Under the pieces are notes generated by a model. That model saw only the letters and a program-made list of their open reading frames with translations, was not told the DNA's origin and made no database searches. A stretch of 64,000 bases of DNA, taken from NCBI GenBank assembly GCA_051362555.1, contig CM120649.1, positions 17,932,567-17,996,566 of the forward strand, in the 5' to 3' direction. This DNA is from Lingula anatina (lineage: Eukaryota; Animalia; Brachiopoda). This document shows, in pieces, positions 16,484-62,387 of the stretch (the first letter of the stretch is position 1; each line of letters opens with the position of its first letter). The position numbers and the translations under genes were made by a program.

Positions 16484-16514
<31 letters not shown>

Positions 16515-35900: not shown

Positions 35901-38900
35901 TCCGTTGCTGCCTTCTCTTCTCTCTGCCTGTCCCTATTTTTGAACTGTTCAAGCTGAAAATAAAATGACTTAAAAATAAAAATATTCAAAGCAACTGAAA
36001 GCAAATATGATAAATTTGGCAACAGTGTTGTATGGCACATGAAAGGTTTGAGTCACAGTTTAAGTTTTTAGTGATTCTATTTGTTAGATATTACTCAACC
36101 CAGATAAGAAAATGTGCAGTTTTTTTATTATTACACCTATAATGCGTGACAATGTGACATCTGAAACTACAAAAATATTAATGTTGGATATGGTATCACC
36201 TTCTCACTATCCATGTTATCCTTACATTCACTTTTATTTCACAGAACTTTTACCTCCTCCTCTCGTTTTGCCTCATTCTCTCGTAACTCCTTCCTCAGAT
36301 TTTCAATCTCTTCCTCATCGTACATTGTCCCAAGATTGGAAGGTTTGCTACGCTGGGAAGCTAAAATTCAGATAATTTACTAATACAGAAGTGTTGTAGA
36401 AGCAGTCAACTAAAATACACCCTCTCTGTTGTTTAAAACAATTATCATGCTGTCCCACTGCATCCCAATAATGTAACTTTACTGACGTCTTTTGGCCTCC
36501 AAAAATCTGTTTCATCAATTTACATACCATGACAAGAAATTGGTGCACAGCTATGAACAGCGTATAAACAATATCTCAAACAACACATCTGCTTCACTGC
36601 AATGCCTAAAACACCATATGCATCTACTCTACGTCCACGTACCATCAAGCCTAGACTTCTCCAGCTCTTTATGCGTGGCTTTCAGTTCAGCCATAAACTC
36701 TGCCTGCATGTTGTCCATCCTGTTCTTGTAGTCAGTTTCCAGCTCCTCTCTCAGAGATTGCAACTCCTGCTGGTGCTGCCTCTCTCTATGTTCCCATTCT
36801 TCTTTCTCCTGGATGCAAAAAACAGTGTATTATCATTACAAAGCGTGTATTATCTTTACATAATAGCAAGGCTTTTCTCCACAGAGCCGTCCAGCCATCA
36901 TTAGGCTGGCCACTGGCCTCAAAAGATGACTTCTATTTCCAAAGACAGCTGGTTATGGCTTACAAAATTTTGGGTTGGTTGGTTGGCCTTGCTTAGGTTG
37001 GACTCCTTGTAAATTGGTATCCACAACATTTTTTTTTACTCCACAATTAGCTTACTGGACTTTCTGAAATGTGAATATCTTTAGTTCAGCAACAATAGAA
37101 ACTTTCTCCTTTGTTAAGTGTGTTGTCATTGATGATTTTAATAATTATATTGATACCTAAAATAATATAATGGTTAGCAAATGATGACAACAGTGATGTA
37201 TATATAAACTTAAAACTTTGATCAAATCTACGGACTAAATCAAATACAGTCTGTTCCGCAAGACACTCAAGGCAAGATAAAGAAGCACTGGGCTACTAAG
37301 AATATTTTCCTTCTGTATAACACAGACCCACTTTCAGACTGCAAATAATGCCAATAAAGTAGGATAACATTAGGTGTACTGGTAAACATACTATGACCCA
37401 TACCTTTACTGAGAATCCTTTCAGAGCATTTCTCTCCTCCTGAAGCTGAGATTCAGTCAGTCTCAGCCTCTCTCTGATCTCACTCAGTTCTCTCTCCAGC
37501 ACCCCATTGGTGAGATTCTGCTGCTGAGCCAATTGTGCTGATTGCGTTTGTTGAGACAGATATTGCTGTGGTTGAGATTGTGCTGGTTGTGACAGGCCAA
37601 ACTGGCTGACCTGCTCAGTGTGTTTCCTGTACAGGTGAGACTGCAGGAAGGTGGGGTTGATGAAGGCCTTCACACAGTATGGGCACTAAAAAAACATTAA
37701 TTATTATGTTTAAAAAATCTTTTAAGTCTACCAGTTGTTTTGGAACACCAGCATATTCCATTCTACTGGACCACATCAAAAACAGTGACCAGTAACTGAT
37801 CAAATTTCCAGAATTTTCCAGATATGGTTAATATATAGTTACTGTTTTCATATTATACTTAAAACTACTTATACCTACAGCTGTGTGATGCAAATGAAAT
37901 TGAAGAACACCTTTACAGGTAAATCTCAAATTAATGTTCCTATGGGCATCATACAGCCATTTTCAGTCACTCAGTACCTTATTATAGCTGCCCGCTCCTG
38001 ACTGCAGCATCTGTTGCTGGGCAGCCAGCAGTTTCTTCCTCTTGTGACTTTCTTTCTTCACCTCAACCAGCTCCTTCTTCTGCTTCTCCACCTCTTTTTT
38101 GGTCTCACCGTGTTCCTGTATCAAGTTGAAAACATAAACTTAGAACCTATTTCATATTGAGGAAAATACATATTAACTCAACAACTGGCTCACTTTGAGA
38201 GGTTAACAACTTAACAGCCTTGCTTTTACATAAAAGATTTACCTAAAAAGAGCTCCCGCACTCGAGACAAGAAGTCTATTCATTTATAAACTTCAGGAAG
38301 TGCATGAACATGTATAGAAATTGTGAAAGAGAGTACAGCCTCTACATATTGCATTGAAGATTTCTGTACTAGTAAGGTTCATTATATCAAATTATTTAAT
38401 TCAAAAATGTTTGGCATTTTTTCATGTGTACTTCATAAGGGAAAATAAATAAATAAACAAATAAATAAATAAACACAACAAGACCCTTCTCTCACCTCTA
38501 CGGCTTTGCGCAGTTTTTCTTCAAGAGTTGCCACACAATCAGAAAGATAATCTTGTGAATGCTACGAAAATATAAAATAAACATTCCGTGAAGACACTAA
38601 ATAAGAATATTAACCACTGCATTATCTCAAGATAAACATGTATTCTGACAGGACAACATCACTGCAAATTTACAAAAGAGAAGTTATTCTTAAACACATA
38701 AGTGAGAATTTCTTTCCTTGAATCTTCCTCTTCACCTACCAATAAGTACTCTATTGTTAGCTGGGCAAGTTTGAAAAGCTTGATGAAATTGGCATCTATC
38801 AAACGGATATCCTGGAATTGGAAAATGACAAAATATAACTGCTAAAATATACATCAAAGATTTATTATATACATAACAATACATAAGTGTGGGTAAAAAG

Positions 38901-39843
38901 AATGCATTATACCATTTCCATTACGTTAAAATCTTAAATCAACACAGTTTATTCAGCTATCTCACATTTTAAACACATTTTTCTGGACTGAATCTGTACA
39001 GTGTAATCTTAGGCACTGTTATCTTTCATCTTTTTTCAATTTTTTTATCTTGAAACCTTACCACCTCGGACTCTATGTTACAAAATGTGATGTTCATGAT
39101 GTTTTCCTGAAGGGCAGTGAAGTCCAGTTCTCTTGAAATTCTGTCCACATCCAGGGCAGCTGAAAGTGAAAGTGAAGGTACACTGACTGTCAAGTAGACC
39201 ATTTAGTTAAGCGACAAACTAACAAGCCAATAAACAGAAAAGAACCTGTGGCAAAAAAGGACTTGTTTTGCAGACTGTTATAAGCAGATTAAATCCATGA
39301 CCTCCAGACCTACCTGGCTGAGCTGTAGGTACAGACACATGAAATTGCAGCCTACAAATTACTAAAGTTAGACATTGAACTTAAGTTAACCAAGGACCAT
39401 CCTGTTACTTTTGTTCTAAACTGTTAAAAACCTACATTGTGTTTTCCTCCTTACTTATTCCAGGAAATAAAACATTTGCATTTTCTTTATAAATACACAA
39501 CAGTAGACTAATAGTGTGAATATTACAATCAAAATATTATAAAAAATATTTTTCCATCCCTAAAGATCAAATCCAAAACCAATGAATGAGGCCTGCACAT
39601 TTGTAACCATAGTTAAAATTTATTTTTAAAAAGTTCCATCCTCACAAATTCCTTAAACTCTTAAAAACGTGGCTCACCAACTCTCCTCCAATCCACCCTC
39701 TCAAACCTCTTCCTGAATGTCAAGTTTCTTCCATTGCCGCTGTTCACATACCCCCCTCCCTGCACTGGCCCATTGCTATATGGCCCATTCATGTGGGGGC
39801 TGTAAGGGATCCTCTGATCTTGTGCTGTTAAAGATGCCATCAT
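25098..39843 (-). CDS. DZIP1: Cilium assembly protein DZIP1/DZIP1L (iguana) homologue, about 24-25 coding exons
   Basis: Exons 39843-39678, 39159-39062 and 38811-38740 encode the Dzip N-terminal domain ([43 protein letters not shown]...FIKLFKLAQLTIEYLL). Exon 37685-37404 has a C2H2 finger CPYCVKAFINPTFLQSHLYRKH. Coiled-coil and acidic exons follow; 26549-26461 encodes TYGTSVWG; last exon 25198-25098 ends SLVSVTDWDDDDDELGLDDL*. Some internal exon borders were not fully resolved. Confidence 0.9.
26263..26460. repeat. 22-bp minisatellite (about 9 copies) starting at a DZIP1 splice donor
   Basis: Unit cactggctccctctatatctca; on the minus strand it reads gtgagatatagagggagccagt and starts at the AAG|GTGAGA donor at 26460. 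Confidence 0.9.
27037..27656. mobile_element. TTAA-flanked non-autonomous DNA transposon (Kolobok-like MITE)
   Basis: TTAA on both sides; TIR agtcataataactcttc versus agcaataataactcttc (15/17); left arm homologous to the 41527 copy. Confidence 0.75.
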
Positions 39844-40431
39844 CTGGAATATAAGGCTGTAATACTAGTACTTCAAAGACAAGACCTTTGTGTATTAAAA
39901 AGAAACATAAAATTGCATTTTAAATATTTGTCCTCTTGGTGTCCCAAATTAGCTTCCTTTTTTCATTCAAATGCATTCCATAGGCTTCTTTTCTTAATTG
40001 AAACAGAATTTAATGTTATCAATTGTGCTTTTGTGTTCAAATGAACCCAAATTTCATTTAGATAAATATATTGCACCTCCAAACAATCTCGATTGCAAAT
40101 CATAAATTGGATTTCATGAGTCATATTTCTTAAAATCTTAAAATCTCAAGTTGATACCGTGATACGCAATCGCTGCAGTGGCACCTGCACGCCCCTATTT
40201 TCATGCAATTAAATCTTGATTCAGACTCAGTGATGTCTTAATCAGAAGTGTAAGGCAAACGATATGATAATTGAGAGAGAGAAAGAGAGAGAAAAAAAAG
40301 AGAGATCATTCAGGAAATTAAAGCAAACAAACTTACCAAATATTGGCATTGACTTTCATTCAAAAAGCACTTAATCCCATGAAATACTTGTTGATCATTA
40401 TCAGCTTGTCAAAATATTCGCCACCATGTTT

Positions 40432-40446
40432 GTTTCTGTTGGAGAC
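40432..40446 (-). promoter_or_regulatory. Candidate RFX X-box next to a forkhead-like site in the DZIP1 5' region
   Basis: GTCTCC-aac-AGAAAC on the minus strand, overlapping TGTTTGT; upstream of a putative 5'UTR exon with a donor near 40335. Confidence 0.35.
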
Positions 40447-40636
40447 CTCGCTTTCACATTCAAGACAGCCTTGCAATTTTATGGATTAACCAAACAAAAA
40501 AGCAGCGTATTTGGATCTTAGTCCAGACCAATAACCATAAATCAAAAAGGGCATAAAGCTTGCGTGTTGGGAATATGATATTAGGTGGTGTTTAGAACAT
40601 CATTTAACCAAGACACACTACGTGTACAAAATTGAC

Positions 40637-40674
40637 CCGGAAGTAATTGCTTCAGCCAATCAAATTACCCCACG
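40637..40674 (+). promoter_or_regulatory. ETS motif plus ER-stress response element (ERSE)
   Basis: CCGGAAGT 40637-40644; CCAAT-caaattacc-CCACG at 40656-40674 is an exact CCAAT-N9-CCACG, about 60 nt upstream of the DNAJC3 ATG. Confidence 0.8.
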
Positions 40675-40732
40675 CTGACCAACATCTTGGTACATTAGCA
40701 GAAGCCGTGTGTGTAGCAGCGGCACCAGCAAA

Positions 40733-41274
40733 ATGCGAGAGGTTACATCGATATCGCACCTTTTTAGGTCATTTTCTATATTTTATCTAGCTCTGGATTT
40801 TCATATATATGGTGAGTAAAATTTTGATTATTTTGTTTCGACCGTGTACCTTAGAACTTGTCACTACCGTGTTCAGTACCAGTCACTTGTCATGTATTTG
40901 GCTGTGGTGCTACCCGACCTAAGTGGAGAATATCTTTCTAGTGACTTCTAACGAAATTATGTTGAAGGAGCAGAGGTAGATTTTTTCGCTAATGCCAGTA
41001 GTATTTAAAAATGAACCAATAATGTCATGTCACTGTAACAAAACCCACACTTACACAGCCAAAGCTAATAGTCTAACAGTAAATTATCAGGAAAACTACT
41101 GGTAGCAATTACTAGTAAATTAATTATTATAACTATAAAATATCCACTTATCAGAAATTTTCTGCAAAGTTACTGTGAAAAAATAGTGTAATACAAAATG
41201 TACAGAAAATAGCGGGCATTAAGTAGTAGAGAATGTCATATGGCAGGGTGTTGTCAGTGGAACTACTGCTATTC

Positions 41275-41325
<51 letters not shown>

Positions 41326-43061
41326 CCAAGATTTGGAGTATTGCAGTTACTGTCAGTTGTCACTTTCTTTCAGAAGGTGAAATTATAAGATTGAATGTCT
41401 GTTGGAATGACAAAGTCACTTGAGATTGTTGGGAGTCAAGATATCATGGAAGCTTCATTTCAGTCAAAATATCAACAGAGTTTAATTTTGGTCAATATTT
41501 CACCAGTTCATGGTAAATTGATTTAAAGGGATAATAACTCTTTGTTTTGGCCAAAAAATGAATTTTCCTGGAGTAAACAACAATTTTCCCATACTTACCA
41601 ATGGTTAATGAATCCATTTTTACATTCAAAGTTAGTCCCTGGTTTTTTTCTAAAAAGTTTGGTTTTTTGTTAAAATCTCTTAAGAGATCTCTTAAGAGAT
41701 TTTAACAGAGTTATCAAAGTTAGTCCCTGGTTTTTTTCTAAAAAGTTTGGTTTTTTGTTAAAATCTCTTAAGAGATCTCTTAAGAGATTTTAACAGAGTA
41801 CAGCCATCAATGGAGGTCACGTGGTCTGAAGACAATCTCAGATATCAGAATAATAGCTATAACTGCCGTTTTTCTTGTACAACAGAATATATTATATTTC
41901 TATGAGTTGGTCACAATGTTTTTATTGTGAAATATAGATCTCATACGAAGAGTTATTATCCCTTTAAATTAACAAATCAATTATTTGAAGTATTTTTTTT
42001 TTTTTCAACTGAAGCATGTTTGTTAAATTTGCCATATCCATCGTCTTTCCGCCAGGTATATTTGGTAATAATGATGTAGAGCGCCACCTGGAGATGGGGA
42101 AGAAGTTTCTAGCTGCGGGACAGCTTGTAGACGCTTTGACACATTTTAACGCAGCTATAGGTAAGTCATCTTGTCACACCCTGTTTATTTTCCAGACACA
42201 TTTTAAATCACCTTGCTTGTTAACGATCTACATCTCATTTCTTGTTCACAAACATTTTTTTTTTTCAAATTCAATATCAATATCATCAGGCCACTGAACT
42301 ATTTCTTCCTACTTATTTTTTACAGCCCAAAATCATGTCAGATAATCAGTCTTATAAATGTGATGTCACTTTCTATTATTTCAGATGGGGATCCCAGTAA
42401 TTACTTGGTGTATTTTAGAAGAGCCACAGTTTATTTGGCTTTAGGAAAATCAAAGTCCGCTCTTCCAGATCTAAACAAAGTTTTAGAGTTGGATCCAAAG
42501 TTCCAAGCAGTTAGTATTAAATAATTAACTGTTTAAGTTTAAATTTTATTAACATGATCTAAATAAGTTTATGAACTTTCAAGGGTCATTTACAATGATT
42601 TGGACAGTTTTAATTTGATTTCATTATTCCTAGCATCAGTTTTCAGTTTTTTTTTTTTGTTTTTTTTAAATGTTTTTCCACAGTATTACTTACAGAACAT
42701 TGTAGAACAGCCTCACTAGCTATGTGTTGTTTTGGTCATTACAGAACGTTGTTTGAGGACATATAATGATCTAAATAAGTTCATATTTAGTGCAACGAGA
42801 CAGACAGTGATATTACAACTATAGAATTTTCAAGAAATTAAAAAAGGTGGATTGCTTTTGTAGGCCAGGCTGCAGAGGGGGAATGTTTTACTGAAACAAG
42901 GGAAGCTCTCTGAAGCGGAGGAAGATTACCTGGCTGTGGTGAGTGTCTTCTTTTAGATGAAGAAATTGTTCACTAAAGATGAAAAAATATAGCTAAGTGC
43001 TTTATGATATTTCAGGTGGGCCAGAATACCAGTTATGAGGATAGAATACTGAATAATGCAG

Positions 43062-43120
<59 letters not shown>

Positions 43121-43517
43121 GCACTGATCAGTTTTGATGAAATTATGGGAAAATTGTGGAAAAGATAAATTCTCTTTGTCTAGAAAATTGAGCTAATGAT
43201 GATGACATGGAGTAAGCAAAAATAATTCACAATAATATTTCATTAAGTTTTGATTCTATTAAAAAAATTATGGTCAAAGAAATAAACTAACTTTTAAAAA
43301 TTAGAGTTGGAAGATGTTGTTCATTTTAAATATAAAGTTATGATGAATGTGATGTTCTTCTTTCAGCTTGAAGTAGACCCCAGCAATGCCGAGGCACAAA
43401 AACAGCTCCAGTTGTTGGAGCCTCAGAGAGAAAACATCAGACTAGCCAAGGAATACTATGAACAACACGACTTCCAGGCAGCTATTGACGCTGTGTCACT
43501 GGCAATAGATGTAAGAG

Positions 43518-43574
<57 letters not shown>

Positions 43575-46254
43575 ATGGGCTGGAGCTTTGCATCAGTGTG
43601 AAATTTTCAGTTATATTGCATAGTAAATGTGTGAGAGAGAGAGAGGGAGAGAGAAAGTGCAAATGTGAATGAAATTTCCTTCAGCGCAAATTTCTCATTC
43701 TCAAAAAAATAATCAGTCTGAAAATAATTCAGTGTGTTTGTGTGCATGATATTCTTGGCATTGAAAATGGAATTTAGAAAAAAGATACTAAATATATATA
43801 TAAAATGTCTTTCACACCCAGGTGAGTCCCTGGGATGCAGACCTCCGTGAGTTGAGAGCCGAGAGCTACATTGCCCAGGGGAACTACTTCAAAGCATCAG
43901 GGGACCTCAGGACCACCACTAAACTGGTGTCAGACAACACGGAGGGTTATTACAAGCTGAGTAACCTGCATTACGACATGGGGGAAGCTGAGGAGGCGTT
44001 GCTGTAAGTTTGTCTGGGATTTGGTAGAAAATGGTCTTTTGTAACAAACAGAGGTTTTAATGATACTCGCTGACGAGTTGCGAAGTTAGGCTGACATCTT
44101 TGATGTGTACAGACTTGAAGGCAGACAAGTTGAAATGTGGTGTTTTATCAACTCAGTATGATTTTTATACTGTCTATGACAAAATATTCAACACATTTAA
44201 ACTATTTTTCAATAAATGGAGAAATATAGGTACAATAGTGTGTTGTATTTTAGGTTAAAAGAATAAGTCAGATCAAATTCAGTCACTGAATCAATTCAAT
44301 TTTCAGGCAAATCAGAGAGTGCCTAAAGCTGGACCCTGACCACAAGAAATGTTTCCCATTTTACAAAAAAGTGAAAAAACTTACAAAACAGTTGCGAGAC
44401 GTCCAGGATTATCAGAGCAATGGGGCGTATGAGGACTGTGTTAGCAAATCAAAGGCTATTCTAAAGACAGAAGACAGAGTGTTTTCCTATATACACAGGG
44501 CTAAGGGACATGCCTGTCACTGTAATATGAAGGTAAGGATTGTGCTAGTGATGTGTGTTAGAGAAGGCAATGCTTAGTGGCATTGTGTTAGTGGAGTGTG
44601 TTAGAGGAGACACAATGCTGGGTTGCGTTGAGAGGAGTCTTCCCCCTTGTGGCAGCTCTGTGAGAGCACATGTTGAATAAGTAAAAGTACCAATATTATT
44701 ATCATTTGTCACTGTCATAATACTGGAAAAAAATAGCAAAATAAAAATGTGGAGCAACATGCCTAGGTCTGTCTACGATTTGATAATTGTGGACTTCTTT
44801 ACTTTATCATTTTGTATATTTATTATTATTTTTTTAAATTTATGTATCATTTTTTTGTATATTTTAATATCAGGATATGGACAAAAAAATACATACAAAG
44901 CTAATCTTGATGTCAGTTTGTTAAACTTTGTTCCTGATGTTTTTCAGGCAAAACATATAGAAGAAGCTTTTAAGTGGTGTAAAGAGATACTAGAAATAGA
45001 TGAAAATAATATTGAAGCCAGGTGTGATTTAGCAGAAAATTATATAAATAATGAACAGTATGAAGAAGGTGAGTCCATAGAAATTATCATCATTGCTTAT
45101 TGCCACAGATGTATTGTTAAGAGCTTTGCTATTCATATATTTTCAAAATTAATTGCACATTTTGTTTTTTGGAAAAAAGTGGTTGAAGTGGTGTACTAAC
45201 ATAAAAGTTTAAAATTTTCAGCTGTTCAAGAATACCAAAAAGCCACAAATATAGACAAAAACAACCAGAGAGCACAGGAAGGACAGCAGAGAGCACAGAA
45301 ACTGCTGAAAAATTCACAAAAGAGAGATTATTACAAAATTTTAGGTGTAAAAAGGTAGGTTGGAAGGTGGCATGATTGAGAATTGGACTCTATTTAAAAT
45401 TACAGTTTAATTTTGATTAATTTTGTTCAGGACTTAATTTAAATGTTAATAGGCAAATTTTATAATGTTCATTATGTAAAGTTTATTGGGGTTATTTCAT
45501 AACAAAATTAATAATCACATTTTTTATTTTAATTTTTTTTTCAGAAATGCAAATAAAAGAGCTATAAACAAAGCATATAGGAAACTAGCTTTACAGTGGC
45601 ACCCTGATAAATTTGATGGGGAAGAGAAGAAAAAGGCTGAAAAAAAGTTTATGGACATTGCAGCCGCCAAAGAAGTTTTATCAGACCCAGGTTTGTATAA
45701 TGTGGCCCCAAACACAATGGTTACCCCACTTCTGCTACACAAGTGAATTAAGCATTGCTTATTTCTAATCATTATACAAATTTTAATTAAAATAAGGATA
45801 CTTAGGATTGTTTTCACGTTTTAGTCTAGTTCTATGTCTTTTATTCGATATTTTATTAGGAAATCCCAATGTATCATCCATATTTTCACTGCAGACATCT
45901 TTTCGCTATTGATTTTTTAAATATAAAAGTAGCCTGCATTTGAAATGAGCACGGCATGTGGTGTCTCATGTAATGTCTGTACCACATGTTATAACTCTTC
46001 GTTTGCGTAATCTAAACATTGATAACAGCAAATAGAGGTAGTTATTAACAAAATCACCACCATGTTCAAGACTTATATTCTTGGAGTTGAGATTTTTCAT
46101 TTGTTTTTCCTCAGAAATGAGACAGAGATACGACAACGGAGAAGACCCTCTGGATCCAGAACAGCAACAGCAAGGTGGCCGCGGCAACCCGTTCTTCCAT
46201 GGGTTCAATCCATTCGGTAGTGACGGTTTCAACTTCAAATTCCACTTCAACTAG
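40733..46254 (+). CDS. DNAJC3: DnaJ homolog subfamily C member 3 (p58IPK/ERdj6): signal peptide, TPR repeats and J domain
   Basis: Phase-consistent exons 40733-40811, 42056-42160, 42385-42509, 42864-42938, 43367-43510, 43822-44003, 44307-44532, 44948-45068, 45222-45354, 45545-45690, 46115-46254. Motifs [87 protein letters not shown]. Confidence 0.97.
41527..41963. mobile_element. Second Kolobok-like MITE copy, in DNAJC3 intron 1
   Basis: Perfect 16-bp TIR agggataataactctt, TTAA on both flanks, internal tandem duplication with 88-bp period (41626 and 41714). Confidence 0.8.
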
Positions 46255-49637: not shown

Positions 49638-51028
49638 AGGTATACTGTGATGAAAAAAAACGGGTTAAAACTATCCATTAGGTGCCCAAAAGTCATTTTT
49701 GAGTAATGAAAAAAAAGTTCTTACGTTTATTTAGTTTTTAAAGCCGATTTTATGCAGGTGTGAATTTAGTTTATGATACTCCCGCGTGGTGGCGCTTTGA
49801 GGCGAGTGACGTCACTTGCGTCGAGGCTCAGAAAGCCATATTCGATTCAGCTATCCGCTTGCTAGCAGTGCAAACTAAAAGCGATACACGCAATTGATTA
49901 CTACATGATCATTTATAAATTCAAACTTTTGAAGATAGATACACAAAAGAAGATTAATTCCCTACGTGCTTATCATTTATTAACCAACAAAATACACCAA
50001 ATTTATGTTAACAGTAAAGGTTTGGAAGCAGGGCAGCGAACATAGTTTTTCACACATGCCCATCTGTCGCGTCGGCTGAACGTTCTTATCCCGACTGATA
50101 AGAGAAAGTTACCTTATAATGCAGGTGTGACAGCTAACATTATTTTTCACACCCGTGCAGTTTACCAGTGTCATTCCGGGAGAGCCAGGTCAGTGGACAA
50201 AAGGCCAAAGATATCGGACTGATAGCATCGGACACTACATTTCACACCTCTGCAACTTACCTCGCTACTTCCGCCTTCCACGTGATCAGTGCAGCAGTAT
50301 GTCGAGTAAAAATTTGAGTCCACTATCATGTTAATATTAAAGTTTTCACTAACATAACCAAAAAATTCGACAGCGTATTTCTGCTACGAACTTTTTTTGG
50401 GCTCTAGAAGCTGCTCTCTTCTTCCTTTCGACGGCCGCATCATGCACACATCCTACAGGTAAGACTCTCGTCGGCAGCGCTCTGGCATTTACTGTCGCAT
50501 TTTGGTACTCCGAAAAATCGAATATACTGGGTATAGCATCATCTTTTAGTTTTCTCCGTGCTTTTCCACCGCACAATTCAGCTCGCAGGTCACGTACGAA
50601 GCATTCCGGCTCGAAGTGGTCGCTACAGATCCTCGCGTGTTTTGACACTGTGTTGGGATTTTTTAACTTCAGAGAATTGAGCCAAATTTTACGTTTTACG
50701 GCATCCGCAGGCAGGATATAATAGCAGATGTCTTTCTTATCGTAACCTACATTACGGCACCCGGGAACAACACAACTTTGCGGCATTTTGTTTTTCTGAC
50801 ACCTGGATGTTTAGTTACCTACTGCATAGTATATACTATTACTAGTACAGCTGTGGGAAGCTACTACCCAGGTTACGTCACTAGAAACTGACCAATCAGA
50901 ATTTTCTCATCTAAATCTCATCTTTTCTCTCTAAAACTTAAAAAGAACAATTTTTTGACGTCGATTTATAGTTTTTATACTGTAAAAAAAGCAGTGAACG
51001 CTATGAGTTCCTAGAGCACAGTAGGCCT
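49638..51028 (-). mobile_element. Kolobok-like DNA transposon derivative carrying a THAP ORF
   Basis: TTAA|AGGTATACTGTG ... CACAGTAGGCCT|TTAA (TIR 10/12, RR/YY termini), 1391 bp; no DDE domain seen. Confidence 0.7.
50349..50786 (-). CDS. THAP zinc-finger domain protein (transposon-derived), 145 aa
   Basis: MPQSCVVPGC...P...RKIW...RICSDHF...LKDDAIPSIF is a complete C2CH THAP signature with an AVPTIF-like box. Confidence 0.8.
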   Translation of the reverse strand: MPQSCVVPGCRNVGYDKKDICYYILPADAVKRKIWLNSLKLKNPNTVSKHARICSDHFEPECFVRDLRAELCGGKARRKLKDDAIPSIFDFSEYQNATVNARALPTRVLPVGCVHDAAVERKKRAASRAQKKFVAEIRCRIFWLC

Positions 51029-52346: not shown

Positions 52347-55052
52347 TTAGCACCACCGCTGATTCCTTACGTCGCAGCAACACCCGACAGGTGCGCGGAT
52401 CCATATCCAATATGGCCACCCTCTATACCATATGGGAACGCGTATCCAGCCCCACTCCGTTTTACAATACGAGCACAAATATCTAATCACCCCGGCATCA
52501 TTAAAGCTGACTCTGCATCTGCTTGGCCTGAAAAAAACCATAGGATGAAATTCCATGTAATGCAAAAATCAAAATTATTACAGGTAGTATTTGCATTCTA
52601 GTAACCTGTTTTGAATTAGTTACGTTAGACTGTTGTTCTTAATTGATGACTCACTTCTTTCGTGAACCGACCTTCAGTTGGTTTATATCTACCGTTTTCA
52701 GTCACTAATTGATGGATTAACTCATTGCCCGATAATGTGGTCGATAGCCTTATTATAGATAGGCCCTATCAAATAGATATCCACAATGGTTCAAAATACA
52801 TTTCCTTTGCGTCACACTATATACAGGTATAACTTATAAGTAACACTAATAAAAAACATCTCTTAAATCGATTTCATATGCTTTAATGAAGTGAGCATAT
52901 TTTTCCAGCCCCCATTTGCATAAGAAAATGCCAAATTTAAAAAATTTTATGGACATCAACTGTATTCCCATGACTACGAATAAATATAGAATACAGAAAC
53001 TATAAATACAGAAATATACATACTTGGGGAGAAGACTACAGTACCTAGATACAATGACTTATTATTGGAAATTGACGCAAGTCCCAACGTCTCTTTGACC
53101 TTGAGTATAAAGGTTGTATATTTTGGTATCCAAATTGAATTTTGAGTTTTGAATTTTGAGTTACATTTAGACACCTTGAAATTCATAGATGAATGGAAAC
53201 TAAAAAAAAAAAATCACATCCACTTCCAGCAACCCTCTGTTTATAGTAGGTCTACACTGATTGTGGAAGTTTTTCAACCAGCGATCTCGGAAACTCGCGG
53301 TGAATATAAAATGTTAACTTTCTTTATCTTTTTTCAAACGAAATAGAAAGAATAGATTTCTCTTCTTTCTCAACTAAGACAGGAAAAAAGATATGAACAT
53401 GAATGTATTCAATAAGTAAAATATTGCAATGTGAACTTACAGACAGTACCACCAGTGATACCAGTGCCACCCCCACCAGGGGGAGTTCAAGACAGGCCAC
53501 CAACCCCCTCCCCAATACACCCACCACGGCCGGATCCAGTGGAACCAAACGAGGCATGGGCTGAAAAAGAGAAATGAAATTAATTGTTTATAAATTTAAA
53601 AAGGCCTCAGTGTATTTATTATCCCTTCTCTCCCCCACCATTATTTCTTTATAGTTCTTGAAACCAAAAACGTTACGATTGCACTAATCGTTGCGGTTGC
53701 AAAATGCAGCTCTATTCGCATTTTGTAACAGCAAAGAGATGCTTTTCTTCAAAATAATTAAAAACATCGCACATGTTTAAACGACTACATCACTCAAAAA
53801 GTTATCTCTACATGTATCTCTAGAAAGTATCAATTTTCGTTTCAAGAAAAGGGCAGAAGAGGAGACAAGTTTCATCAACACTGGATAGCGCTTATTCTTT
53901 ATAGGCCTATATACCTGGCCAATGAAAACCACATTCAACCAATGTCTAGCAATATAAGCGATAAACAGATCCACCCAGCGTCTTTGAAAAAATTTAGGTC
54001 TATTCACAGGATAACTTATCAAAGAATATCAATTTTATCCAAAGGATAGCGCCATCTAGTGTTGATGACACTGGGTCCTATATTTAATGGACCGCAGCAC
54101 ACGTAAAGTGTACCCTGTATAGGGCAGCCCTCGTTTCTTGCGCTCGGCAAGCGACAACTCGGGGACGCCGTCGACCGGATGTGAATCACTACCTTTGGGT
54201 ACCATGGAGTCATCGAAGGTCAACTTCGCGTCGCTGTAAAAATAATTCAACAAATATCATAACAGCAAAAACAGAAAGAAATATGAAGCAGATCATATAA
54301 GAATTGGTAATTATTAGATTTGGAACCGTAACATCAGGGAAGAGAAGGACGCCTTCTAAGTAGCAACCACCAACTGCAGTTAAACAGGGTGATAACAAAA
54401 CAGGATATTTTCGAATAAATAAACATAACCAAAACAAATTATCATATTAATTGTTTATGAAATCGGCACACTGAATCCGACAATGCGACTATTTGTGCTT
54501 TAGTGTTTTTTCTATTCACCTGGGTGTTTTAAATGCCTGTCCTACGAGTTTTTAAATACTGCATGTTTCCATGCCAAACCTTTAGGACCCCCCCCCCCCC
54601 AACCCCACGCCTTGAATGCAATAACCACCTAATGATTTGTTCTTAGCTCATGCAAACAGATTTCAAATTTTAAAATGATAGAAATTGAAGATTAGGCTGT
54701 AGACATAAAAAAAATTAAGATACCGGGAGCTATACATTAAACATGAATAAAGTTCAGAATTAATTTTAAAATACATAAATTAAAAATAAAACAGACAAGC
54801 AAAATAATCAAACATAAGGCCTGCACTCGATGTTCTTTAGACAAAAAAGATAGGAAAGTGGCACACTCACGGGTAAGCCTTGCCATCCGGTGATATGAAT
54901 GGATTGGTTGAAAATCCGGTCTCAATCTTGGATCCGTCGTCCAGCTGGTCATACAACACCTGGCCATCTGGATTGTCGGGGAGACTTCCTCCGCTGGGAA
55001 TGACCTGGACAGCCAGGCCGAATAGCATCAGCCACGCCAAGTACTTCTCCAT
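52347..55052 (-). CDS. Trp-rich Spaetzle-like cystine-knot precursor A (200 aa)
   Basis: Exons 55052-54871, 54233-54114, 53560-53441, 52527-52347 (all phase-2 GT-AG, 603 nt). Signal MEKYLAWLMLFGLAVQVIPS, prodomain, RKKR, then mature GLPYTGPCLVWFHWIRPWWVYWGGGWWPVLNSPWWGWHWYHWWYCLPSRCRVSFNDAGVIRYLCSYCKTEWGWIRVPIWYRGWPYWIWIRAPVGCCCDVRNQRWC. The exon-2 donor (gtacac) is weak but matches the paralogue's position and phase. Confidence 0.85.
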
Positions 55053-55903
55053 GGCGATTTTCTGATGAACTGAATAATAGCCTAATAATAATAATAACAA
55101 ATGTAATAATAATATTAGTAATGATAGGCCTAATGATTATAAATAAACCCAAACTATTTTTCATTTTTCATTTTCGGAGTTTGTATTTGTTATTACTTAT
55201 ATTTATAACTACTAATACATATTGTAAGAAGGTGATGGAATGGTTGGCGCTCAAGTAGGCCCTACCAGTTTTAATCCTGTTTTCAGTCTACCGTTTTCCG
55301 TTTAACTAATATCTCAAAGAAAAGATTTGTGTGTCAACTGTATATTAACTGCTAAGGCCTAGACTTAAATTTGCCACGGGCGCCCTGTGTTGGAATCGTG
55401 TTTTTTTTTTTTTTTTTTTTTTTTTTTGAGCCAATGGGTTTGACGGTTGAAAAGTAATCAACTAGCGTTTTTGAGCCCCTACATGGCTATAATAGGAATT
55501 CACATAACTTTGAATTTATACTAATGAATAAGACTGAGTTTTTAACATTTTGACTTTTGCTATGCCTCCTCAAATGGCCACAAAAACCATCTCCATCACA
55601 ATTTTGACAGGTCCGATAATCTAGGCCTGCGTTGCTGTACAATCACCACATGTGCACTGATCAATGCCCGTTTGGAGACTATGCAATGCCATCTACGGTA
55701 TTGCTGTGGTCTAATTTGCCAAAAGATTTAGCTTGACAAAATCCTAGAGAGACCGTGAGAGACCGTGAGTTGGGGAAGTCAGACAGTACTGTATTTTCTA
55801 AAATGATTACATCTGAACAAGTTAAAAAGTCCCTACTGCCCTAAAAAGCGAACACAAGTTTTGTTTAAAACGTGTTGAAAACGCAAAATAAATCACGTCT
55901 TAC

Positions 55904-55977
55904 CTTTGCCGAAAACGTTGCCTTCAAAATTCACTGCGGCTGTTTATCCCCACGTCTGAAAACGACGTATTTATATA
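55904..55977 (-). promoter_or_regulatory. TATA box and short 5'UTR exon of precursor A
   Basis: TATATAAA (55977-55970), donor AAG|GTAAGA at 55904/55903, acceptor cag|aaaatcgccATG 9 nt before the start codon. Confidence 0.55.
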
Positions 55978-56879
55978 TAATGTAACCTATTTGAAATTAT
56001 AATGGAGGTACTCTGCCACATCCCTTATTTACAAACTTGGCAACTTCTCAACACGCACTGAATAATTTTAAATTTTTCAATTAAAAAAAATGGTAATGAA
56101 TATTAATGATGATTATTATAGGTCTGACGACAGTTAAATCAATACTGTGGTTGTTATTATTGAATAGCTTGTCAGCAAATTAAATGTTTGTTCATTTGTA
56201 AGTGCAATATTTCATGCCATCAGGTCGCTTTGAGATATGCCAGATCTCTTCATTAATACACCCCTTTCTGTCTTTTAAATGTGCATGGTGTTCGTCTTGT
56301 TAGGACGTGCAATCTCACACTGATTTATTATCATGTTTACCTCCTGTAGTATTCTCAAAGGTCGTGTTCGTGTATGAATGGTACGGGATAATTGGTATGC
56401 AGCAGAAAGGCATTACCACGTGACTGCACCCATCTGCTTTCCAATATCAGTACCAAGCTGCTCGGTTTATGGAGTAAAGATAGGTGTTCGTCACTTAAGG
56501 TTGTTCCATTTCAACGAGCTGGGCATAGTTGTGGTCATTTTAGCATTTGTTGTGGTCATTTTAGCAAGTGCGCCCTTGTAGTAAAGGTCAATTGGCATTT
56601 CACCTTAACAAATGTACGCACGTACCGCATGTACCACTTTTCAACAGCAATCTTTGAAATTACCTTAACAGAGTGAAATTAAAATTCGCCCCCTGTCTCT
56701 TTGGTTCCATATTGGTTAGGTTGAATTCCATGTGAATATATTCCGGGGATATATGTATGAATGTGTTCAAGCTTAGTTCACAGAAAATCATTTTAACGAA
56801 TGGCTTCCAACGTATGAAATTTCAAATATAAACAGTATAAATATTATATTAAAATAAGTCATACGCACCAACCTGGACA

Positions 56880-56911
<32 letters not shown>

Positions 56912-56914
56912 TTA

Positions 56915-58500
56915 CTGTCATTGTAAAAGAGGCACCTGTAAACCCTGTTTCAACTAACTTTTCTACATGTGTACTATGTAAATGTTATCTATATTATATC
57001 TTATACCAATGGTGAAAAATCATTTCTCTATATATTATTTCCGTTGTTTAAACTCTGTATAATTGTGTATTGTCTACCCATTCTATAGAACATCTGTTTT
57101 TCATTACTATTATAGATTTGTTATTATTTCAAAATAAATTTTAGAGGGGATTACCATTTTTAAATTTCCTCCTTTACGTGTAAAAATGGCTTCCATATTG
57201 GTACAAAACTGTTCAGTTTATGAATTAATGATAGGTGTTTTAAATTTAAAATTACTGTGTCATGATGAAATGGGCGTAGTTGTTTTCGACAAGGAAGTAC
57301 TTAGCAAAACTTATTTTACTGTCACTTATGTTCGTTTTATGCTTTAATTTTAATAGTTTATTTATGCAGTATATTATATCAGTTTTCATAATGAGATTGA
57401 ATTCCCAGGCACCACTTGGCTAAAAAATATTCAAATAAACTTTGTTGTCACTGTCAGTAACTGGTAATCCTTATCAAACTTTTGCCTTACGCGGAGAAAC
57501 CAATATGCAATGGCACACGAACATCATGGTCATCAAAATCATGCGCCTTGTTTCTTAGCGTTGGCGATTAACCCCCTCCACGGCTCTCTGGCTTTGGCAG
57601 TTCCCAGCATGTTTGTTAACCTAGCATGCCCCATCAACGGGTGTTACGTAAATTTAGGTGAAGTAATGTTACGAAGTAAACCTCTCTAACTATCTCATCT
57701 TTTAGATCACAAATCCTGAGTTATAAAAAATGTGAAAAAGGCAATATATATAAACTTGAGACAGTGGTAATTAGTCCTTTTAAGCAACCCTGTGTTTCAG
57801 AGTTAAAAAGAAACTAGCCTATATGCTGTCAGCATCCCTTTATCGTTTCTAATAAACTCTGAACCTACGGGCACCAAGATACAAGATAAACAAAAAGCGT
57901 ATATCAGTGGCGTATTAAGACTATTTAGAGGGGGGGGGGGGTCAGGGAGGTCCTGACCCGCCCCTCGATTTCCGAAAAAACCACACCAATGGTCCCCTCT
58001 TGAAATTAGAATACTGACTAGCTGAACTAGCTCTTAACCGTACCGTAGGGCACCGTTCGCCCTCTAAATTATCAAAAAATTATCGGAGCCCTTCAGCGGG
58101 CGCCAAAACGACACGCAAGGGGGCTGGGGGGGGGGGGGGTGGCTTCGCATCTGAGGCCTGTCATTCCTAAAAAAAAAACAGACCCCCTTCAAATAATCCT
58201 GGATCCGCCCCTGCATTTTATTAAATAACTTCACTAAATTATTTCACCCAAAAATAATTCACGTATATCTTAAGGTCTGTATGCATCTCATAATATTAAC
58301 AAATTTACGCATCTTACCCACCCATCCATGTTCTATGCAATTTTTAAAATGATGTAAACAGAGTGCAGTTAAAATTCATGACGTTTCTCTTTGGTTGAAT
58401 TGCTTGTGAAATTATTTCAACTGGGGCGTCTAGACGTGTGATCTGCAGGTTAGTTTATTCAGTAAAAAAAAAAGGCGAGGTGCCTCCTTTACAATGACAG
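56915..58500. mobile_element. TA-flanked non-autonomous DNA transposon between the paralogues
   Basis: TA|ctgtcattgtaaaagaggcacct ... aggtgcctcctttacaatgacag|TA (TIR 22/23). Confidence 0.65.
57905..58213. mobile_element. Nested CAGTGGCG...CGCCCCTG MITE (hAT-like termini)
   Basis: Termini cagtggcg / cgcccctg; interior similar to 8998-9430 and 1677-1760; TSD not recognisable. Confidence 0.55.
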
Positions 58501-58957
58501 TAAATTACAAACACTGGCATCCGTCATCCTTCATACTGACATTCTTCCTGGGATGTTTTTATTTATAAAACACTTAGTATGCTAGAGACGGCACACGTTG
58601 GCACAGGAATAAATATGCCCACCGCACCCCTCGGTAGTAGTAATATATGGACGCAAGGGTCATAAAAATGTGGGGGGGGGGGGGGTAACCAGAGTGAAGC
58701 AGATGTAATTAACAGCCGAAATTATCAAAAACAATACAATGCAAATTGATTGAAAAATGATCACAGTATATATAATGCTATAAATCAACACATTCTCGTC
58801 TAATACGCGGTGATTCGCCTCAGGATTGACTCCTCCCCCCCCCCCCCCCCCCCCATGAACTTTTCCGGGGTCAAGGGCAATTTTCTCCTACTCACGAATC
58901 ACTACTTCCTCCCGCATCCCCGCACTTGGATTCGATATCTTAGCCCACTTTCAATTT

Positions 58958-59130
58958 GGGGCCGTAGCAATAGTCCGAAGGTTCAATAGTCCGAAGGTTC
59001 ATTGGTCCGAATATTCACTATAGAACCTTCGGACCAATGAACCCTTGATTAAAAAATCGATGAAAATGTTACCACTTTTCGAACCAATGAACCTTCGGAC
59101 CAATGAACCTTCGGACTATCGAGACGCCCC
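58958..59130. mobile_element. Foldback MITE with internal 15-bp repeats (Mutator-like)
   Basis: Arms built of atagtccgaaggttc / gaaccttcggactat units, GGGG...CCCC ends, ttcaattt repeated on both flanks. Confidence 0.7.
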
Positions 59131-59194
59131 CTTCAATTTTATAATACCTATACATTTTTAGCTTTGAATGATTGACCAGTGGTTGATAACTATT

Positions 59195-59251
<57 letters not shown>

Positions 59252-59688
59252 TAAAAGAACCTGTAAACAACAACAACAACAACAACAGTTTCAGCGTGCA
59301 ACTAATCGTTTATTGCAATATGAACTTGCAGTTATTGAGGAGTTTTAATGCTGACAACATACGTGTAGGACAATAAAGCCTAAAGCTTTGTTCTCACTTT
59401 TAGTATCCAGTCATATAGCAAAATCATAACGGTATAACATTTAATCAAAATTAACGCTACATAAATTTCGCTGAAGCAATATCGAGAAGAGTAAGAGGTT
59501 GCAATAATAAATTTATAAGAGTATACCTCTGATTTGTCTTGGAAAATGCTAGTTTATCCTTAAATGTGGAACAAGATACTATGCTACCATAAATGTCCAT
59601 ATGGCACAGCATTGCGTTTAAGCGGGGAATCTTGAATAAATATGCCGTCGGGGCTGGAATTGACTCGATGCGCCATCTATCCATTATT

Positions 59689-61851
59689 TTACCAACACTG
59701 CCAGAAATATCGCTGAAAGTTGCAACAGCAGCCGACAGGTGCGCGGATCCACACCCACCTGACGTGCCACGTGTACCAGAGCGGGACTCGCAGCCAGCCC
59801 CATTCCGTGGTGCAGCGCGAGCAAAAACGGACATATCTACCGTTAACCCAAGTGTAGTTTGACTTACAAATATTTCTGAAAGTAAAAAAGTAATTATAAG
59901 AAAATAAACCATTAGGCCTAGCTTTGAGTCAAACAAACATTCCGTTTATTTTTTCTAGGTACTGTTATTTCACTATTAAAATGACAATTAATAATCCTTA
60001 CAACGAGGGCCATTATCCAATTCAAAGCTTTTTAATTTACACAACCATCGCATTTCGGCACCCGCTTCAACTTACGACGTAGGCAGGCAGTAGATCCAAT
60101 AATGCCAATGCCATCCCCACCAGGGGGAGTTCAAGACAGGCCACCATCCAGAATTCCAGTAGATCCACCACGGTTGGACCCAGTTGTGCCAAGTTCTGCA
60201 TTGACTGAAAAAACCCAATCGGTCAAACAATTAATATATTGTTTCTCACATACATATCATTTTATCATTTTACTACTAACTAATCTTGTTTTAAGATATA
60301 TGAAAGTCAACATCCTGATTTTTACAGAAATTGGTACGGTGCCATGGCAGTAAGTATTGGGGGGGGGGGGGGGGGAGGGGGGGCTTGTATGTTCATATCG
60401 TTGCATTGTACAAGTATATTATTACTGCTATTTGGTTCAGAATTCTAGTTTTAGACTCCTGGGCTATTGGGAGTTGACGCGATAATGATGAACCCTTCTA
60501 GGTGTCTACCCAAATTATGGTACCATTCAAGGGATAAAATGCGAAAAACGTGAAACACATTTTAGGAACCCTAAGGTAAGATATGAACTTATTCAATTAA
60601 CTTTTTTTTCAATAAAAATGCCAATCATTTTCCTTTTTAATATATTTGAAAACAGTTTAAAGGTAACTTTTTAAATTACAAGTTAGCCTTAACAGAAATG
60701 AAAAGTTTTACAGCACATGGATAAAAGGTAGCTAAATAATACTTAAAACCGTTTATTATTTGAATGACCAACATATGTCAATGCAGTGATTAATTCGACT
60801 AACCCATAGAGCTGGCGTTTGGTCCTATTTCCGGTTTCTGAGAGGCTCACTGGGAGGATCTCAGGGTTGTCGGGGTGAGTGTTGCTGTTAATAGGTTCTC
60901 TGGCAAGAGACTGCTGTTGTTGTGCGCTGTTCAACTGCCTGTTAATGTTACCAGAAATACAGAAAAGTTGATTAGTTAATTAAGATGCAAATTTGAAAGA
61001 ACAAAATTAGAAAAAGAAAATGAATGACACAAGATGCATTTAAAGTGAAGTTAAATAAAGGAATTGCTGATTTTGGCTAGAAAATAGAATAAATAATACC
61101 ATATTCACTATTTAAATGTAATACCAACTAAACAGCAATCTAAGTGATTAACGAAATAGAATGAATGGTGCATGTAGAGACATCGGTTGCTAGGTTGATA
61201 ATAATCTATAGAACTTAATAAATTGATGTATCAATACTGCGAAAAATAAATTCATAAATTGTTCAAATGAAATTTAAACAAAACAAAATAAACAATCTTG
61301 ATTTTCATATCATCAAAGATATTCTTGTTGTTGACAATAATCTAATGGAAAATCAAAAAGCATACATGTATTATTGTTCAATAAGACAAGAAGACTAATT
61401 CAAACAGCTTCCTTCTTTGTTTATTCCCTACAATCGTTGGACACTTTTAAAATATATATCTTCTGTATCTAATCAACTTATCTAATATTCCTATTATTCG
61501 TATGTCCATTAGTTTTTCTATTTTTTTTTTAAGAAAACGGAACCCACGGGAATAATTTTACACTGAATGACAGGTTCCCATAAACAGTCAAAAGAGGTGG
61601 TGAGTTTACTGTACTCACTTTGAACTTGGGTATCTTTTACCATCTGGAGACACATCTTTCCTGGTAGAAAACCCCGTCTTCACGGATCCGCCGCCAGGAA
61701 GAGTCACACTCAACACCTGGCCGTCAGGTGATTCAAGGGGAGGGGTCTCGGTAGTAAGTAGGCCTATCCAATCCGGGACCGGGATGAGTGACAGCGCACT
61801 TGCCAGTTGGCCCACCCCACCAAGCAACATCAGAATCTCCAGAAACCTCAT
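59689..61851 (-). CDS. Trp-rich Spaetzle-like cystine-knot precursor B (227 aa)
   Basis: Exons 61851-61619, 60938-60804, 60204-60076, 59875-59689 (all phase-2 GT-AG, 684 nt). Signal MRFLEILMLLGGVGQLASA, prodomain, RTKR, then mature QLYGQCRTWHNWVQPWWIYWNSGWWPVLNSPWWGWHWHYWIYCLPTSNICKSNYTWVNGRYVRFCSRCTTEWGWLRVPLWYTWHVRWVWIRAPVGCCCNFQRYFWQCW. Confidence 0.87.
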
Positions 61852-62294: not shown

Positions 62295-62387
62295 CTTGGT
62301 CCTCGTTTGAATATCTTCTGTTTTCTGTTCTCCTCAACAGAACTTTGCCTGTTACTCGTCCACACCCAAATGTGAGTTGTATTTATA
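62295..62387 (-). promoter_or_regulatory. TATA box and 5'UTR exon of precursor B
   Basis: TATAAATA (62387-62380), donor AAG|GTTAGT at 62295/62294, acceptor tag|aaaattacgATG 9 nt before the start, the same geometry as paralogue A. Confidence 0.55.

Follow-up and report, generated by a model that had tools for sequence, protein, structure and literature searches.

Spaetzle, the neurotrophins and horseshoe-crab coagulogen are the described proteins closest to the genes reported here. According to the available parts of the cited articles, Spaetzle forms a covalent dimer joined by a central disulfide and contacts Toll through a flexible Trp-loop in which one tryptophan (Trp) is named (PMC9427763), Drosophila DNT1/2 and the mammalian neurotrophins are cleaved by furin (PMC5412559), and coagulogen is a defence clot protein that is cut to form insoluble coagulin polymers (PMC2956697). 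Here we describe a tandem pair of genes, A and B, in a 64,000-nucleotide stretch of the genome of the brachiopod Lingula anatina (assembly GCA_051362555.1, contig CM120649.1, positions 17,932,567 to 17,996,566; hereafter the window, whose own coordinates are used below). The pair belongs to a Lingula subfamily of Spaetzle/neurotrophin-like proteins that is undescribed and extremely rich in Trp; the genes are real and conserved, and gene B is expressed. The cystine-knot scaffold and the annotation of gene B were already known, and what is new is the Trp-saturated Lingula subfamily. No description of the family was found in the full-text literature, a search that leaves subscription journals aside and in which a listing in a proteome or expression table is possible; the portions of bioRxiv 10.64898/2026.03.09.710468 and PMC12189941 that were available are silent on it.

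Both genes lie on the minus strand with four coding exons each, and when the window sequence is spliced all six introns are GT-AG and phase 2. The gene A model (55052-52347) encodes 200 residues, in which RKKR is followed by a 105-residue mature part with 20 Trp and 9 cysteines (Cys). The gene B model (61851-59689) encodes 227 residues, in which RTKR precedes a 108-residue mature part with 21 Trp and 9 Cys. The two mature parts are identical at 58 of 102 aligned residues. Each gene has an AG located 9 nucleotides 5' of the ATG, and a TATAAATA box with a splice donor lies upstream of both alike. A preliminary description of the locus, made from the letters alone, had proposed this tandem arrangement, and its coding structure, residue counts and three blocks of identity between A and B were all recovered; the spacing it gave after Cys I, C-x7-P, is in fact x8-Pro. 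The density of Trp lies far beyond chance: the richest 40-codon stretches free of stops contain 13 and 12 Trp, and none of 20 local shuffles of the window exceeded 5. On the gene models, the RNA reads and this shuffle comparison, we rejected low complexity or translation in a wrong frame as the source of the pattern. A third copy in the window was likewise rejected, as a family hidden Markov model found only the exons of A and B above noise.

Transcription was assessed with raw reads from four of nine listed RNA runs (X1, X4, X7 and X9), picked by species label, with tissues not given, and placed at a 95% identity cut. Gene B is transcribed in some of these libraries only: its four coding exons and 3' untranslated region (UTR) are covered in X7 and X9, at no fewer than 154 and 12 reads per million respectively, and X1 and X4 contain essentially no reads from it. 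These levels are lower bounds because most reads agree at 95-99% and those of lower similarity were discarded. The intron 1 joint is present in 974 reads from X7 and 29 from X9, and that of intron 3 (200 nucleotides) in 514 and 80. Read by hand, the intron 1 joint reads show 21 letters in place of the 27 of the window, an allele difference that keeps the frame, and the read-placed intron 3 joint is one base off the gene model, an offset that would follow from a silent change in the first base of exon 4. The proposed splicing is thus borne out by reads for introns 1 and 3 of gene B, and among the joints listed, drawn from reads that are only 95-99% alike, none falls on its intron 2 or its 5'UTR intron. 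Gene A has no reads of its own in any of the four runs at the 95% cut. Sixteen X4 reads placed on its exon 3 carry three differences and, read by hand, run on into sequence that translates as P0007, a relative introduced below. The X4 reads fit P0007 rather than B, and the paralogues are therefore expressed in different libraries.

The gene B protein is letter-identical to RefSeq XP_013415424.1, "uncharacterized protein LOC106177248" of Lingula anatina, the sole protein returned by a search with exon 4. A whole-protein search kept 3 of 242 candidates and a four-member profile search 5 of 2365, all from Lingula. Together they add five relatives of A and B: P0002 (LOC106177234, 80% identical to gene A), P0007 (LOC106177158) and P0008 (LOC106177174), which are equally Trp-rich, and P0003 (LOC106161923) and P0004, the P0003 cluster including LOC106171343 (P0004/5). 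P0007 and P0008 are each located on a 777,559-base contig. The possibility that P0002 is gene A was rejected on the 80% identity and because the window has no locus that matches it. Neither of two full-length protein searches retrieved gene A, which therefore probably lacks a correct public model. The earlier remark that such genes are easily missed may accordingly hold for gene A, but not for gene B, which is annotated in RefSeq. Copy number is counted from annotated proteins. No relative outside Lingula was found in protein searches, which require shared five-residue words, and the apparent restriction to Lingula is for that reason a lower bound on the range; none of 184 pattern matches in metagenome contigs was confirmed as family.

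The family divides by Trp content. The knot region has 20-21 Trp in A, B, P0002, P0007 and P0008, and 13 in P0003 and P0004, which form a separate branch with support of 100/100 in a midpoint-rooted tree. Ten Trp columns are invariant in all seven members, and 17 are common to at least five. Every member has a conserved pro-segment followed by a variable linker. Immediately ahead of the knot, A, B, P0002 and P0007 have R-x-K-R, which is missing in P0003, P0004 and P0008; furin processing is therefore not family-defining. P0003 and P0004 have one additional Cys in the pro-region and one in the knot, a pair that may tie the two together. A further model, P0006 (380 residues), is apparently two P0003-type genes fused, which suggests that the 13-Trp sister genes also stand in tandem. 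The "candidate new family" of the preliminary description is thus best restated as an undescribed Lingula subfamily inside a known superfamily, with a less Trp-rich sister group and a furin site that is not universal.

Between the mature parts of A and B, the proportion of differing silent sites (pS) is 0.71 and that of differing replacement sites (pN) is 0.28; pN in the pro-part is 0.42. Silent sites near saturation alongside lower pN indicate an old duplication kept by purifying selection. Reads and window differ at 21 positions of the gene B coding sequence among the 40 differences listed. Six of the 11 changed codons in the mature part alter a residue; none of these is a Cys or a shared Trp, and one is a Pro common to the five Trp-rich members. 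The transcribed allele in X7 and X9 differs from the window by several percent, well above the 1.6% heterozygosity of the Lingula reference given in the available text of PMC4595640, a divergence to be expected if the runs came from a distant population or from a cryptic species that carries the same label. Separately, the WWPVLNSPWWGWHW block of exon 3 (60084-60140 in B; 53440-53500 in A) differs between the genes at only 3 of 45 nucleotides, in contrast to the near-saturated silent sites elsewhere. Gene conversion of this block is possible, and the numbers are small.

The mature parts very probably adopt a Spaetzle/neurotrophin-type cystine knot, a reading that rests on the agreement of individually weak lines. 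Pfam gave no match for six of six full-length and four of four mature members. The preliminary description had proposed a comparison with the Spaetzle profile, and PF16077 matched none of six full-length, four mature or six single-exon queries at E<=10; HMMER filters drop most matches above about 0.1, and Trp bias may lower the scores. The NGF profile, PF00243, reached 11.6 bits at best (E 0.32, gene A exon 4), below its cut-off of 27 bits. Single-exon matches to Pox_D5 (E 0.17) and PD40 (E 0.0028 over 14 residues) were below cut-off and were rejected as noise. Because the Pfam tests for Spaetzle and NGF failed despite a Spaetzle-type precursor build, we file the family in the superfamily only. 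When a profile of four mature parts was compared with the PDB, neurotrophins took the top 10 rows and 13 of 18 (E 0.09-2.6), with NT-3 at E 0.092 and an alignment to NGF 1btg that is gap-free from Cys IV to the final CxC. The remaining rows, four picornavirus VP1 and one reductase, were rejected as noise. PDB sequence searches with P0001, P0003, P0007 and a full-length profile returned noise only, and coagulogen was absent at E<=10 from five PDB sequence and profile searches.

Structural comparisons, all of predicted models, point the same way, to the two-finger antiparallel beta fold of the cystine-knot cytokine superfamily. By ESM Atlas features, where a score below 0.9 is a lead only, Spaetzle ranks first for mature B at 0.89 (189 of 256 shared), followed by NGF/Spaetzle at 0.87. 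The Atlas model of B, with a predicted template modelling score (pTM) of 0.59, has template modelling (TM) scores of 0.69 to Spaetzle and 0.64 to BDNF/NGF clusters over 97-98 residues. For whole P0003 the feature score reaches 0.93, with three clusters that include Spaetzle (Pfam share 25%, 91% and 22%), and an Atlas structure search with it gave a single molluscan cluster (TM 0.50) and nine rows of unrelated proteins below 0.3. The whole P0003 model has a pTM of 0.58, with core strands at 76-86, and in Foldseek its top matches are neurotrophins (best E 0.085). When this model was compared with 48,161 chains, all 10 with Z>=2 were cystine-knot cytokines: coagulogen 1aoc came first (Z 5.3, root-mean-square deviation 4.2, 122 aligned residues, model 24-198 with the pro-region included), followed by NGF (Z 3.6) and then PDGF, sclerostin, IL-17, VEGF, Norrin and Torso ligand. 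Identity to coagulogen on the structural alignment is 12-13%. No fold search listed a Spaetzle chain. The most confident part of the P0003 model is pro-segment 41-70 (79-89), which suggests that this segment packs on the knot and is not a loose spacer.

A non-knot reading, in which an unrelated disulfide-rich beta protein has a Cys pattern that misleads the predictors, would accommodate both the lack of a significant sequence match in any library and the poor model of mature B. We regard it as highly improbable, since one and the same superfamily comes first in the Atlas, in Foldseek, in VIA-align and in the PDB profile search. The Spaetzle/NGF-like assignment of the preliminary description has support of moderate strength from three lines, the Atlas, the paralogue structure searches and the PDB profile ranking.

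The Cys residues can be assigned by alignment. The six knot positions are C6, C43, C50, C68, C96 and C98 in B and C8, C45, C50, C67, C95 and C97 in A, and the predicted pairs are C6-C68, C43-C96 and C50-C98 in B and C8-C67, C45-C95 and C50-C97 in A. The I-IV, II-V, III-VI order proposed earlier fits the Cys spacing, and the fit is one of spacing only. All seven members have the six-Cys pattern, aligned to NGF/NT-3, with V-x-VI on the last strand and a Cys IV-Cys V spacing of 27 that is gap-free relative to NGF 1btg. Three Cys lie outside the knot: the first of CxxC, the middle of CCC and the terminal residue. The middle Cys of CCC occupies the place of a Val between the last two knot cysteines of NGF. 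Because that Val position faces the dimer axis in NGF, this Cys could form an interchain bond, and the odd total of nine Cys is compatible with a covalent dimer. All seven members begin with a hydrophobic stretch (2.2-2.9 over 11 residues) and have no later stretch of membrane length, as judged by a simple hydropathy test rather than SignalP, so the A and B precursors are predicted to be secreted.

In the five Trp-rich members, Trp makes up 29-30% of the mature mass, and the computed isoelectric point (pI) is about 9. In all seven members, a pro-region with a net charge of -2 to -12 and no or one Trp fronts a mature part of +6 to +9. The stretch from Cys I to Cys II holds 12-13 of the 20-21 Trp in A and B, compared with 6 in the sister group, and these residues lie on both strand parities. 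The Trp of the last hairpin lie on one parity, and two of them match neurotrophin aromatic residues; they are probably the ancestral dimer core for these two reasons. The Cys I-II Trp, by comparison, would form an aromatic surface that exceeds the burial capacity of a dimer core. On the available text of PMC9427763, this region of Trp gain corresponds to the flexible Trp-loop region of Spaetzle.

We tentatively favour the view that A and B are secreted precursors of a Trp-saturated knot that is cut to give a self-associating extracellular structural or adhesive material. The proposal builds on the pairing of a pro-region that is acidic and free of Trp with a cationic knot in which Trp accounts for about 30% of the mass. 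The pro-region would act as a solubility and charge shield that keeps the cationic, 19%-Trp knot soluble until a furin-like cut at R-x-K-R releases it. The released knot would then dimerise through the middle Cys of CCC, with the first Cys of CxxC and the terminal Cys paired within the chain, and assemble through its Trp-loaded first finger, by aromatic stacking and cation-pi contacts, following the logic of coagulogen. The product might stick to itself and to surfaces, the substrate being chitinous or anionic: the organic layer of the shell, cuticle, chaetae or mucus. Lingula has chitin in shell, chaetae and gut (PMC4595640, available sections), and the coagulogen precedent means that the knot clan is able to become a protease-triggered insoluble polymer. 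More guardedly, a Spaetzle/neurotrophin-type cytokine may here have been turned into building material, a protease-triggered, disulfide-locked, self-assembling phase, adhesive or cuticular, that is aromatic and absorbs UV strongly. That would be an independent repeat of the coagulogen case with wholly different chemistry, and the 13-Trp sister genes would represent an intermediate stage.

Several observations weigh against a structural material of this kind. A and B have no internal repeats, and R-x-K/R-R is missing in three of seven members. Expression at 154 reads per million is moderate compared with the extreme level of many bulk structural proteins. Invariant exposed positions, such as the Arg of WIR, fit receptor contact equally well. 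The structural evidence is also imperfect: the AlphaFold model of mature B has a predicted local distance difference test score (pLDDT) of 45.7 and gave neither a Foldseek match at E<=0.001 nor a VIA match, and the P0003 model is middling (pLDDT 56.5). The coagulogen Z of 5.3 is below the distinctive level of the tool, and a second structure comparison gave Z 4.8, only 0.6 ahead of NGF. Finally, the LOC and accession numbers and motifs of the family are absent from the available part of the PMC13425148 shell-proteome supplement, and the terms Trp, Spaetzle and knot from that of the PMC4595640 supplement; this is a weak counterpoint, because such tables may use other identifiers.

The receptor-contact argument leads to a second reading, in which A and B are signalling ligands: furin-released Spaetzle/neurotrophin-like dimers that engage a receptor of the Toll-like or Trk-like kind and whose Trp-rich first finger is an enlarged loop for receptor binding. 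The nearest Atlas clusters are Spaetzle and neurotrophins, the WIR motif is invariant in all seven members and aligns with neurotrophin W/F-I-R, and the paralogues differ in expression, the X4 reads belonging to P0007 and not to B. Published work, in the parts available, supplies a model in the furin cleavage of DNT1/2 and neurotrophins (PMC5412559), a contact in the Spaetzle Trp-loop with Toll (PMC9427763), and candidate partners in the repeated radiations of Toll-like receptors in Spiralia (PMC8609888). Yet 12-13 Trp stand here against the single Trp named in the Spaetzle loop (PMC9427763), there is no Pfam match to Spaetzle or NGF, and a protein with 30% Trp by mass and a net charge of +7 would be unlikely to diffuse freely. 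On balance, we consider a ligand role somewhat unlikely.

The charge asymmetry between the pro-region and the mature part would also suit defence effectors, that is, cationic Trp/Arg-rich knots that are silenced by an acidic pro-piece and that, in mucus or coelomic fluid, attach to microbes, agglutinate them or perturb membranes. A class of Trp-rich antimicrobial peptides is known, the pI of about 9 and the several copies are in keeping with such a function, and coagulogen is itself a defence clot protein (PMC2956697, available text). A role in defence nonetheless seems improbable to us, given the strong purifying selection, the long identical blocks between old paralogues and the expressed allele, whose changes spare Cys and shared Trp. 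Immune effectors usually diverge fast, and at 12-13 kDa these knots are far above the typical size of a Trp-rich peptide. An optical role, as a UV screen or high-index material in the shell or in larval or egg coverings, would draw on a calculated absorbance at 280 nm for a 0.1% solution of 9.5-9.9 in the five Trp-rich members, about 10 times that of a typical protein. This argument comes from composition alone, and the adult Lingula lives in a burrow; we consider such a role very unlikely.

Trp is the rarest and costliest residue, and a folded growth-factor domain with 20 Trp that exists in five copies and is kept by purifying selection has no counterpart in the literature searched. If the structural role is true, a cytokine scaffold has been re-used as a material, and the family offers a model from nature for an aromatic adhesive set off by cleavage, in an animal with little-studied chemistry of shell, chaetae and pedicle. 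If instead the proteins are ligands, they are concrete candidates for the unknown endogenous ligands of spiralian Toll-like receptors. Because the family spans 13-21 Trp, with and without a furin site, a change of function is testable across the paralogues.

Table 1. Features of genes A and B and of their surroundings in the window.
Feature	Position	Strand	Description
TATAAATA box, gene B	62380..62387	-	Sequence; putative non-coding first exon to donor 62295; read depth only 0.1, one run; junction not among the joints listed
Gene B coding exon 1	61619..61851	-	Signal peptide (predicted) with the conserved pro-segment (PDG...TGFST...SPDG..YP); X7 read depth about 160
Gene B coding exon 2	60804..60938	-	Variable linker, RTKR (60826-60815), start of mature peptide; intron 1 joint in reads
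Gene B coding exon 3	60076..60204	-	Spans Cys I to Cys II with 12 Trp; X7 read depth about 106
Gene B coding exon 4	59689..59875	-	Cys III, CxxC (Cys IV), TEWGW hairpin, WIRAPVGCCC, terminal Cys, stop; intron 3 joint in reads
Gene B 3'UTR, extent of read coverage	59470..59688	-	X7 reads start at 59471
Small element between A and B	58958..59131		54-nucleotide inverted arms made of 16-nucleotide units
Duplicated non-coding stretch, two copies	56605..56706; 58296..58396		103 nucleotides, B-A spacer, 73% identity
TATAAATA box, gene A	55968..55975	-	Sequence only; putative non-coding first exon to donor 55904
Gene A coding exon 1	54871..55052	-	Predicted signal peptide and conserved pro-segment; 84% identical to P0002 exon 1
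Gene A coding exon 2	54114..54233	-	Acidic linker, RKKR (54142-54131), start of mature peptide
Gene A coding exon 3	53441..53560	-	Cys I to Cys II, 13 Trp; 75% nucleotide identity to B exon 3 over 129 nucleotides
Gene A coding exon 4	52347..52527	-	Remaining knot, WIRAPVGCCC, terminal Cys, stop; weak Pfam NGF match, E 0.32
THAP-domain open reading frame	50352..50810	-	E 1e-16; 1.5 kb downstream of gene A
Unrelated multi-exon neighbour	46042..46251	+	Presumably the C-terminus of a DNAJC3-like gene
Unrelated multi-exon neighbour	28300..43700	-	Presumably a C2H2-finger coiled-coil gene
Unrelated multi-exon neighbour	about 13200..19900	+	Presumably a coiled-coil gene
Open reading frame of 921 codons, uninterrupted	5179..7941	+	Signal-like start, two MAM domains, EGF-like, at least four Sushi repeats

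Around the pair, no sign of a secretory gene cluster was seen among the neighbours in the window. The MAM/Sushi reading frame is possibly a retrocopy, because an intronless modular gene is odd in an intron-rich genome, and the THAP reading frame is probably a P-element-like or domesticated transposon gene. Pfam searches of the exons of the other neighbours gave weak zf-C2H2 and DUF1978 matches only. The small element between A and B attracts many partly matching reads in all four RNA runs and is a dispersed, transcribed repeat that resembles a miniature inverted-repeat transposable element.

Set beside the known systems, the Lingula pair shares separate features with each. Trp/Arg-rich antimicrobial peptides likewise have a cationic, Trp-rich mature part behind an acidic pro-piece, and they are short and have no growth-factor knot. 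Coagulogen (1aoc) is the best structural match of the P0003 model, pro-region included; at 13% identity and low Z there is no sign of orthology, a clotting cascade in Lingula is hypothetical, and coagulogen is not known to be Trp-rich. The neurotrophins (NGF, NT-3, BDNF and NT-4; PF00243) have a last hairpin that aligns with that of the Lingula pair, a TM of 0.64 and a furin site in common with it. Unlike them, the pair has a shorter Cys II-III spacing (4-6 residues), three extra Cys and a short pro-region, and its scores are far below significance; neurotrophin dimers are non-covalent. The Spaetzle family (PF16077), which includes Drosophila DNT1/DNT2 and unnamed Atlas clusters of molluscs, arthropods and echinoderms, comes first in both Atlas searches. 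The pair differs from Spaetzle in its 19% Trp, in having no PF16077 match, and in the additional Cys of CxxC, of CCC and at the terminus. A furin site is missing from Spaetzle itself, which Easter/SPE cuts, according to the available text of PMC5412559; the furin-type site of the Lingula pair is instead like that of DNT1/2. As in Spaetzle, a signal peptide and a pro-region precede a C-terminal knot of about 100 residues, whose odd Cys count is compatible with a covalent dimer.

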